NCBI GenBank assembly: GCA_048885525.1
Contig: JBHLLP010000032.1
Coordinates: 1 to 41,744 of the forward strand
Length of the DNA: 41,744 nt
Direction of reading: 5' to 3'
DNA from: Candidatus Hermodarchaeota archaeon
Lineage (GTDB): Archaea; Asgardarchaeota; Lokiarchaeia; Sigyniarchaeales; SOKP01
The notes beneath the pieces are model-generated. The model was given only the letters and a program-made list of their open reading frames with translations. It was not told the origin of the DNA and ran no database searches. Positions 9,579-33,497 of the stretch are shown in pieces (the first letter of the stretch is position 1; each line of letters starts with the position of its first letter). The position numbers and the translations under genes were made by a program.

Positions 9579-9689
9579 AGCGGGGTGGGCTAGCCTGGTT
9601 TATGCCGCAGGGCTCATAAGTCGTAGAGCTTATACCCATCTCATTGAGATACCCTGAGATCGTTCGTTCAAATCGAACCCCCGCTACCA
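9579..9689 (+). tRNA. Initiator tRNA-Met(CAT) with a 32-nt intron at 37/38 (9619-9650) and encoded CCA
   Basis: A1:U72 acceptor AGCGGGG/CCCCGCT, CAGGG/CCCTG anticodon stem with three consecutive G:C pairs, TTCAAAT T-loop, BHB central helix CTCA/TGAG, 3' ACCA. Confidence 0.93.
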
Positions 9690-31757: not shown

Positions 31758-32198
31758 TTATTGAGAGATTAAACAAATGCTTTTATAATTAGTTGGATAC
31801 TGCATCATTTCATTATAAACATCTAAAATTTTCTCTTCTGAAAGATCTTTTAAATGAATATTAAAAGGCCATACTCCTATAATAATGTCCCCTAAATTCT
31901 TCACATTACCAATCAAATATCCTGTTTTCTTTCCATTTAATTTTTTTGAATATAATATAACAAGATAATAATTATATGTATGGTCAACTATAGGATTTCC
32001 AATAATAAGAACTTCTTCAATATTTTGAAAATTGATTATATGTTGATTTGTTTCACTTAACTTTTTCAACTCTAAAGTAAATTTAGCGGGAATAGATATT
32101 GGCTTTTTAAACTCAAGTTGTTTAAAACTTAAAGTTAGATTTTTATGTTCAAATTGTTGATGTGCTCTAAAGATTACTTTATAAATAATAGAATCCAT
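31758..32198 (-). CDS. Hypothetical protein
   Basis: 146-aa ATG ORF downstream of aIF1 on the same strand; no recognised motif. Confidence 0.6.
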   Translation of the reverse strand: MDSIIYKVIFRAHQQFEHKNLTLSFKQLEFKKPISIPAKFTLELKKLSETNQHIINFQNIEEVLIIGNPIVDHTYNYYLVILYSKKLNGKKTGYLIGNVKNLGDIIIGVWPFNIHLKDLSEEKILDVYNEMMQYPTNYKSICLISQ

Positions 32199-32277
32199 AC
32201 AAAATATTTTAATCCATTTTATTAATTAATTCATCTAATACTAAAGTCTTCCAAATTATGGCGTTTTTTTTCTTCTA

Positions 32278-32595
32278 TTATCCTTGAATAAGAATATTAT
32301 CCTCAGGAAATCCCAGATCAATCAAGAATTTTTTCATTTTAAACCGATGATCTCCTTGGAGTTCAACTTCGTTATCTCTTACAGTTCCTCCAGAAGCACA
32401 TTTCTTTTTTGCTTTTGTTAATATATTTTTAAGATTTACATCGAAATTTCCAATGAAAGTGATAACAGTAACAACTCGCCCCCATTTTCTTCTATCGTTA
32501 GAGATTATTATTTGTTGTTCATCGGCGCTTAAGCTATCGCAAATACATAGTTCTTTTGGAAAACTACATATAGGACAAATTTCATCATCTTTAAT
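32278..32595 (-). CDS. sui1: Translation initiation factor aIF1 (SUI1), 105 aa, apparent ATT start; absent from the ORF track
   Basis: Manual translation (I/M)KDDEICPICSFPKELCICDSLSADEQQIIISNDRRKWGRVVTVI...KKKCASGGTVRDNEVELQGDHR...GFPEDNILIQG has the archaeal SUI1 signatures. In-frame TGA TAA lie 2 codons upstream of ATT. Confidence 0.93.
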   Translation of the reverse strand: MKDDEICPICSFPKELCICDSLSADEQQIIISNDRRKWGRVVTVITFIGNFDVNLKNILTKAKKKCASGGTVRDNEVELQGDHRFKMKKFLIDLGFPEDNILIQG

Positions 32596-32603
32596 GCTGT
32601 CTT

Positions 32604-32613
32604 ATCACAACCT
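32604..32613 (-). promoter_or_regulatory. Shine-Dalgarno-like element for aIF1
   Basis: AGGTTGTGAT matches 8/10 of AGGAGGTGAT, the complement of the 16S 3' tail seen at 41672-41681; it ends 8 nt before ATT. Confidence 0.55.
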
Positions 32614-32969
32614 TTATTGTTAAAACTTTTTAAAATTTAATTCTAAAAAATAATAGAATAAAATCTTATAAAAATCTTTTTTATTTTGGAATGGACCTTT
32701 TATAATAGTAATTATTATTCAATTTATTAGTTTCTTGAATACAAAAATCTCATAATTCTAAATTTTAAATAGAGTGTATTAGAAATTTAACGAATTAAAG
32801 AATAATAGTAATTAATTAATTATTCTTTTCAACTTCAATTTAGTTTTAACTCATTATTTTCTAGCTTTTATAATTAACCCTCTTAAGTAAAAAAGTATTT
32901 AAAGAAAAATTTTTATTATTTATCAATATGCTTATTCTTAATGTTAGAATATTTATGTGATACATTAAA

Positions 32970-33497
32970 ATGCAGAGCTCATGGATTTTTAAAGTAATTG
33001 TCGCGGGTGCGGGCGGTGTAGGAAAAACAGCAATGATTACAAGGTATTGTACGGGAAAGTTCGAGGAAGGGTATAAAATGACGATTGGAGCAGGATTTCA
33101 TACAAAATCTGAAACCCTCGATACTGGAGAAGCCGTTAAGATGCAACTTTGGGATTTTGCAGGTGAAAAACGTTTCCGTGAACTCCTCCCTGACTATTGT
33201 AAAGGTGCAAGCGGTGCTTTTATTTGTTTTGATATTAGTGATTATGATACATTTAGGGAAATACCTGAATGGTTAAAAATAATTCGTCAAAAAGCTGGTT
33301 TTATCCCAATAATTCTCATGGGAATGAAATGGGATCTTCCAGATCATGAAGTTAATTTTGAAGTAGCAAATGAATATGCGAATAAAGCAAAATGTAATCA
33401 ATGTGTCTTTTGTTCCTCTAAAGATGATATAAATATAAATGAATCCTTTCAAGCTATGGCAAAATGGTTAATTTATTACGCAGCTCTAGCAGATTGA
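32970..33497 (+). CDS. Rab/Ras-like small GTPase (Asgard type)
   Basis: G1 GAGGVGKT, G2 YKMTIG, G3 LWDFAGE, G4 GMKWD, G5 CSSK; no C-terminal prenylation motif. Confidence 0.92.
   Translation: MQSSWIFKVIVAGAGGVGKTAMITRYCTGKFEEGYKMTIGAGFHTKSETLDTGEAVKMQLWDFAGEKRFRELLPDYCKGASGAFICFDISDYDTFREIPEWLKIIRQKAGFIPIILMGMKWDLPDHEVNFEVANEYANKAKCNQCVFCSSKDDININESFQAMAKWLIYYAALAD

Follow-up and report, generated by a model that had tools for sequence, protein, structure and literature searches.

A conserved, very probable AUU start codon on the aIF1 gene of a Lokiarchaeia family and its possible use in feedback

The aIF1 gene and its upstream signals

The window analyzed here is a stretch of 41,744 nucleotides from a Promethearchaeota/Lokiarchaeia genome (3.58 Mb, 87 contigs, 29% G+C) whose congeners include the MAG 'Loki_b32'. 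Its minus strand carries a stop-to-stop frame of 107 codons (32278-32601) that encodes a SUI1/aIF1 protein. The Pfam SUI1 profile (PF01253) matches residues 28-99 with an E-value of 2.4e-18 (66.8 bits, cut-off 25.5) and over positions 2-77 of its 77, and NCBIfam NF002096 is matched with 116.3 bits against a cut-off of 98. An archaeal-type N-terminal zinc knuckle, CPIC...CIC (CxxC...CxC), precedes the SUI1 domain, and this knuckle (CPICSFPKELCIC) is conserved in all aIF1 orthologues with a complete 5' end. By its domain, its zinc knuckle and its standing as the main copy in the family, the product is SUI1/aIF1, the general initiation factor of the organism. The neighboring genes are a Ras-family small GTPase (Pfam Ras, 5.6e-39) that is transcribed in the opposite direction, away from aIF1 (32970-33497, plus strand) and, downstream on the same strand as aIF1, an ORF of 155 aa with no Pfam match (31761-32225, minus strand).

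The minus strand reads TTG TGA TAA GAC AGC ATT AAA GAT GAT GAA ATT TGT CCT at the locus, letter for letter as in the initial annotation of this DNA. Two in-frame stops in tandem, TGA TAA (32602-32607), close the frame upstream, and the TGA is part of a GTGA that is conserved in every c1-type aIF1 orthologue. The first in-frame ATG, GTG or TTG is codon 88 of the 107, which leaves the zinc knuckle (CPIC...C.C) and the larger part of the SUI1 domain upstream of it. Both the upstream closure by two stops and the lack of a canonical start ahead of the CPIC motif had been noticed initially, and both were borne out. From composition alone, an 88-codon run with no canonical start has a chance of about 4% and is therefore not rare; the case for a start at ATT goes beyond chance because of conservation, and not because of the open run itself. 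Read from the putative AUU start (ATT, 32593-32595, minus strand), the coding sequence covers 32278-32595, with 105 codons and a TAA stop at 32280-32278.

An imperfect Shine-Dalgarno (SD) sequence, AGGTTGTGAT (32604-32613, minus strand), ends 8 nt before the ATT. The 16S rRNA encoded on the same contig ends in ...GGATCACCTCCT, and AGGTTGTGAT agrees at 8 of 10 positions with the SD that would pair fully with this 3' end, forming 3 base pairs, two central mismatches and 5 base pairs. The SD-like motif reported at this distance is thus confirmed, although in imperfect form. The sequence AAGGTTGTGA is present in 84 of 106 distinct sequences that start with ATT, ATA or ATC (hereafter ATH), of which 98 are main-copy aIF1 sequences and 8 are others. 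Other genera maintain the same SD register with different mismatches (AGGTAGTGA, AGGTCGTGA, AGGAAGGAAT). Since GTGAT or GGTGA usually lies 4-7 nt from the starts in this genome, the 8-nt spacing of aIF1 is on the long side.

Further upstream, a conserved block of 37 nt (32643-32679, minus strand) is composed of an A-rich BRE-like run, the TATA sequence TTTTTATAA (32674-32666), a spacer and an invariant G at 32643, which lies 24 nt after the TATA box. This block is almost invariant in the 22 congeneric orthologues (genus g1), is recognizable in six more genera (g12, g13, g15, g17, g21 and g22) and occurs once in the genome, with no second copy when up to 6 mismatches are allowed. Conservation is lost upstream of the block, and the leader downstream is variable. 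The BRE/TATA-like stretch first placed at about 32666-32680 is therefore real and sits within a larger conserved element. Its conservation and spacing lead us to infer a gene-specific BRE/TATA promoter, with a putative transcription start near the G at 32643. From the TATA box to the presumed start (within 32643-32679), conservation across genera exceeds that of the leader, and this part of the block may hold a binding site for a transcription regulator.

Transcription from this putative start would give an AU-rich leader of about 48 nt (32596-32643, minus strand), which differs in length and sequence between genera. RNAalifold predicted no conserved pairs around the aIF1 start (0 pairs in 25 sequences from nine genera), and folding of the source sequence alone gave a z-score of -1.85. 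We also considered a special initiator tRNA as an explanation for initiation at ATT, and rejected it. Aragorn detected no initiator-like tRNA with a non-CAT anticodon, in a search that possibly missed intron-rich tRNAs, and returned a single ordinary tRNAi-Met (window 9579-9689, plus strand), with a CAT anticodon, an intron, A1:U72 and three G-C pairs in the anticodon stem.

Conservation of the ATT codon and alternative readings of the start

We assembled 98 distinct main-copy aIF1 sequences from nine genera of one family, taken from the order (146 genomes) and from loci of the collection scan. At the start position, 95 of them have ATT and three have ATC, and none has ATA, ATG, GTG or TTG. 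Elsewhere in these genes, isoleucine is encoded by ATT (47%), ATA (34%) and ATC (19%). The median pairwise dS between the orthologues is approximately 1.5 and dN/dS is 0.05; synonymous sites are saturated and yet the start ATT is fixed, which indicates that it is held by selection on the nucleotide. ATG, one base away, was never fixed at this position. In 22 out of 22 congeneric orthologues, GGTTGTGA(TAA) is followed by two or three codons and then by ATT AAA GAC GAC, with no canonical start, and in seven sequences an in-frame stop lies just one codon before the ATT. After the ATT, the residues K-D/E-D/E-D/E are kept through synonymous changes, and this short stretch of one lysine and three acidic residues is therefore translated. 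The homologous position in sister genera is GTG, TTG or ATG.

Because ATT occupies 95 of the 98 positions amid freely varying isoleucine codons, and because it aligns with the GTG, TTG and ATG starts of sister genera, aIF1 is very likely translated from an AUU start. The proposal in the initial annotation that ATT is the sole plausible start is thus supported across nine genera with no canonical alternative, and the comparison of orthologues that it had called for returned only ATT or ATC in the close relatives (n = 98).

Other ways to read the frame were rejected. Read-through would have to pass two consecutive upstream stops, TGA TAA; some species also have a TAG one codon ahead of the ATT. 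For a programmed frameshift from an out-of-frame ATG or GTG, no slippery site is conserved, and the A-run of genus g22 is missing in genus g1. The second isoleucine codon, just before the first cysteine, is the start in one NCBI call; its distance from the SD is 23 nt, and its use is also opposed by the acidic residues ahead of it, which are conserved as protein.

Two observations come from a congeneric complete genome, G006. At its aIF1 locus (C1:1385113-1385367, L025) the 5' part of the gene is a run of N. Away from that locus, at C1:1032005-1032085, a match of 27 residues to the aIF1 N-terminus lies inside an open frame of 189 codons.

A more trivial explanation would be that an indel hides an in-frame ATG, or that the ATT copy is a pseudogene while a second SUI1 gene is active. 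A second intact SUI1/aIF1 paralogue is indeed present on contig C2 of the source genome (G000:C2:79568-79882, plus strand; locus L002:1396-1743) and is 62% identical. However, this paralogue is sporadic in the family, being found in 8 of the genomes examined, and TAA stops break the copy in G007. Throughout the family it is the ATT-type copy that is present, and most family genomes showed that copy alone; SUI1 matches as such occur in 126 of the 146 genomes of the order and in 256 of the 268 of the phylum. The ATT copy is moreover intact and under strong purifying selection (dN/dS 0.05), and the same frame and the same ATT recur in 98 independently assembled sequences. We therefore exclude the sequencing error, either a single base or an indel, that had been named at the outset as a possible refutation, and assign a negligible probability to an artefact or a dead gene. 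The other doubt raised then, that another intact aIF1 might exist, was correct in the formal sense that a second gene is there; the universal copy, however, is the one with ATT.

In the source genome the paralogue has a strong SD (GGAGGTGA) followed by 8 nt and ATA AAA GAT, and its general layout is GAGGTG, nine variable bases, ATT or ATA and then AAA GA. From this arrangement, the second SUI1 copy may also start with AUH, in this case behind a near-perfect SD, and an in-frame GTG inside that SD may be an alternative start.

The initial annotation had further proposed that an out-of-frame AUG just past the AUU acts as a decoy and captures ribosomes when aIF1 is high. The tandem ATGATG (32588-32583, minus strand) does exist in the source genome and opens an ORF of 19 codons (32529-32588). 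An ATG at +7/+10 is, however, found in only 4 of the 98 orthologues, namely the source genome and three sequences of genus g16, and is missing from the other 94; most relatives, including the congeners, read GAC GAC instead. Since nearly all relatives lack the ATGATG, it is no part of a conserved circuit. We judge it incidental, and consider the capture of ribosomes by this AUG very improbable. Another ATG out of frame, located 26 nt past the ATT, is shared by 93 of the 98 orthologues. In the window it is part of ATGTAG (32567-32572, minus strand) within ATA TGT AGT, so that a TAG follows it directly, here and wherever the next codon is AGT or AGC, forming a minimal start-stop. This element is probably a by-product of the Ile/Leu-Cys-Ser codons.

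The AUU could also be reached by termination and reinitiation. The GTG within the SD-like motif opens a mini-ORF of five codons, GTG ATA AGA CAG CAT TAA, whose stop overlaps the ATT (ATTAA), and ribosomes might restart at the AUU. The distance from GTG to ATT and the ATTAAA are conserved in most genera, where the mini-ORF and its overlap are usually present. The arrangement nevertheless breaks down in several genera: in g16 the mini-ORF ends earlier (GTG ACA TAA) and the ATT is followed by ACC, AGC or AAC, g17 has no GTG at all (AAGGAAGGAAT), and g18 and g20 have an in-frame GTG. Furthermore, the GTG has no SD of its own, as the AGG lies only 2 nt before it, and the constant distance is explained equally well by the spacing between SD and start. 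Reinitiation is thus an improbable route to the AUU, and direct SD-led initiation is the reading that we retain.

ATH starts in other genes and in other Asgard archaea

The aIF1 gene is not the only one in this genome with a probable ATH start. We took the 3,023 long ORFs that remain when shadows of longer frames are set aside. In 97 of them the first canonical start is preceded by 35 or more codons, and in 77 of these 97 (2.5% of all long ORFs) this initial stretch scores as coding. Pfam searches on 20 of these ORFs identified at least 10 with domains that begin upstream of any canonical start. The examples include a rubrerythrin, an alcohol dehydrogenase, an aminotransferase, a ThiF protein, a Ras-like GTPase, a HIT protein, an aldehyde ferredoxin oxidoreductase, a luciferase-like oxidoreductase and CorA. 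Genes with a Pfam domain that begins before any ATG, GTG or TTG are located on contigs of the source genome (G000) outside the window, for example at C47:24315-24851(+), C43:25812-26798(-), C18:25661-26842(+), C17:7167-7910(-), C12:31525-32211(+), C24:11871-12398(-), C22:45608-46708(-), C19:57001-58851(+) and C29:35979-36911(+). Their typical layout is GGTGA, six bases and ATH, which occurs with ATT in 8 cases, ATA in 4 and ATC in 3, as compared to 0-1 for control codons. Enrichment of an SD before ATT over the first 40 codons gave no signal, in a test that was diluted, and the signal is detectable in the restricted context. Extrapolation suggests up to a few hundred ATH-start genes genome-wide.

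Some of these starts are conserved in congeners. ThiF orthologues start with ATT, ATA or ATC in 21 of 21 congeners, with ATG at or near this position in the sister family, and so a conserved AUH start alone is no mark of autoregulation. Rubrerythrin and the aminotransferase have mostly ATT, with ATG in several congeners of the same genus. Two ATH-start genes have orthologues outside the family that start with ATG or TTG. In a 400-kb sample of a sister-family genome, where aIF1 starts with TTG, we found 0 such ORFs out of 345, as compared to approximately 7 expected at the rate of the source genome, which makes frequent ATH starts a lineage trait. A sample from a family whose aIF1 starts with ATA contained 5 such ORFs out of 361, one of which is aIF1 itself.

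These data bear on the possibility that the AUU is real and involves no feedback, so that aIF1 would be one of many AUH genes in a lineage that is rich in AT (29% G+C) and selects starts in a relaxed, SD-dependent manner, and the weak codon would merely give a low and constant output. The tens of other ATH-start genes, their enriched layout of GGTGA followed 6 nt later by ATH, their conservation in congeners and the lack of such ORFs in the sister-family sample all agree with this explanation, and the wide use of AUU, AUA and AUC starts by other genes weakens the case for autoregulation. On the other hand, the aIF1 codon is far more constrained than a drifting start (97% ATT, never ATG), whereas rubrerythrin and the aminotransferase switch to ATG within one genus. 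Judging from these comparisons, selection on the ATT of aIF1 is tighter than at the other AUH starts that we followed.

We then surveyed 60 Asgard genera, which represent 27 families, with at least one aIF1 locus per genus. In 20 of the 60 genera, there is no in-frame canonical codon before the zinc knuckle, and the start is AUU or AUC (9 genera), AUA (6) or CUG (5). The start is GTG or TTG in 18 genera and ATG in the remaining 22. Pressure towards AT alone is not sufficient for this pattern, as one family with a G+C content of 43-56% at its sampled loci has either CTG or GTG at one and the same position behind AGGAG. We used aIF1A as a control, and identified an in-frame canonical start, mostly TTG, in 31 out of 31 loci, which include genomes whose aIF1 uses ATA or CTG. 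In other Asgard families (loci L355-L384) the aIF1A start is very often TTG, as in GGTGGTAAT TTG CCT AAA AAA, and GTG in one family. This second initiation factor thus tends to a start that is canonical but weak. Near-cognate aIF1 starts recur in other Asgard families, and one of them is CTG at 43-56% G+C, where aIF1A is canonical; this recurrence speaks against a start without feedback and, together with the exceptional invariance of the aIF1 ATT, strengthens the case for autoregulation. We regard low, constant output from an AUU with no feedback as possible, yet on balance doubtful.

A wider proposal is that the AUU of aIF1 is a set-point of stringency. The level of aIF1 would be held where AUU is just usable, and this would open AUU, AUA and AUC as a regular class of starts, used by a few percent of the genes and co-tuned by aIF1. 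It is consistent with a single contrast, between the genome with an AUU-started aIF1 (77/3,023) and the 400-kb sample with a TTG-started aIF1 (0/345), and with the ATG or TTG orthologues of two ATH genes outside the family. We consider this proposal speculative and rather unlikely.

Possible feedback on aIF1 and comparison with known systems

The reading that we favor for the locus as a whole, with a probability of about 0.55, is that of a main functional aIF1 gene that starts with AUU and is under negative feedback. Transcription from the gene-specific BRE/TATA promoter would produce a leader of approximately 48 nt with no structure. The SD would position the 30S subunit, and Met-tRNAi would pair with the AUU with the third base mismatched. 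As aIF1 is expected to destabilize initiation complexes on near-cognate codons, a rise in its level should lower initiation on its own mRNA, in a negative feedback like that of IF3 on infC. The same setting would tune many other AUU-, AUA- and AUC-start genes of the lineage. Taken by itself, the feedback step, which is modeled on other systems, has roughly an even chance of being correct. In a lineage so rich in AUU starts, aIF1 may possibly be a poor discriminator against AUU.

The ATT start is already present in machine calls at NCBI, and we found its interpretation in no paper. In several related MAGs, PGAP predicts proteins of 105-107 aa from the same ATT, beginning with MKDDDICPIC, under the bacterial name 'stress response translation initiation inhibitor YciH', itself a machine call. 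Other pipelines in the same database have forms of 65-91 aa that start downstream of the ATT, and those inspected are devoid of part or all of the zinc knuckle. Gene callers that accept only ATG, GTG and TTG therefore shorten aIF1, in some calls dropping the knuckle, and probably assign wrong starts to tens to hundreds of other genes in the family, with effects on Asgard protein catalogues and on presence/absence tables. None of the papers that our literature search returned deals with a non-canonical start of aIF1. Neither 'AUU' nor 'autoregul' occurs in the text of a review on archaeal initiation from 2020 (PMC7531240), and the passages searched in the papers on S. solfataricus and P. abyssi aIF1 (PMC4705826, PMC8211752, PMC6237735) are silent on a non-canonical start of the gene and on its self-regulation. 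One of these papers notes that the S. solfataricus gene is intact, having earlier been annotated with a frameshift (PMC8211752).

Within the archaea, the closest systems for comparison are the aIF1 proteins of Sulfolobus solfataricus and Pyrococcus abyssi, which belong to the same family and have the same N-terminal zinc knuckle. Sulfolobus aIF1 discriminates against AUU-programmed complexes in vitro (Hasenohrl 2006/2009, via PMC4705826 and PMC8211752), and this rejection of AUU is the activity that the feedback model requires; the aIF1 studied here may discriminate likewise. P. abyssi aIF1 destabilizes imperfect pre-initiation complexes, the stability of the aIF1-30S-mRNA complex being dependent on the SD (Monestier 2018, PMC6237735), and a long distance between SD and start lowers efficiency in that system, according to the same source (PMC6237735).

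Feedback of a fidelity factor through a weak start is a theme of IF3 in bacteria and of eIF1 in eukaryotes, and our search found no archaeal description of it. If the model is true, the conserved AUU on aIF1, with AUA and CUG in other Asgard archaea, would extend this logic to the third domain. Bacterial infC, which encodes IF3, has an AUU start and is repressed at translation by its own product (Butler 1987; Sacerdot 1996; cited in PMC3326321). The locus described here shares with it a factor of start-codon fidelity whose own gene has, on an SD-led mRNA, a near-cognate AUU kept in many species (in the present case ATT in 95 and ATC in 3 of the 98 orthologues), and the predicted logic, in which more factor would mean less initiation on its own mRNA, is also the same. 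The two differ in that IF3 and aIF1 are unrelated proteins, and in that the feedback on infC is experimental whereas here it is predicted. AUU starts in E. coli are known from very few genes; in the present lineage, AUU also serves many other genes.

The comparison with eukaryotes involves a homologous factor, as aIF1 and eIF1 share the SUI1 fold and both have a weak initiation site on their own mRNA. Asgard archaea are the closest archaeal relatives of eukaryotes. The gene for eIF1 (SUI1) is autoregulated via the poor context of its AUG (Ivanov 2010; Martin-Marcos 2011; cited in PMC3326321 and PMC6237735). While the eIF1 site is reached by scanning of the mRNA and is an AUG whose Kozak context is weak, the site on aIF1 is a non-AUG codon positioned by an SD, with no in-frame AUG before codon 88, and the likeness between the two is one of logic only.
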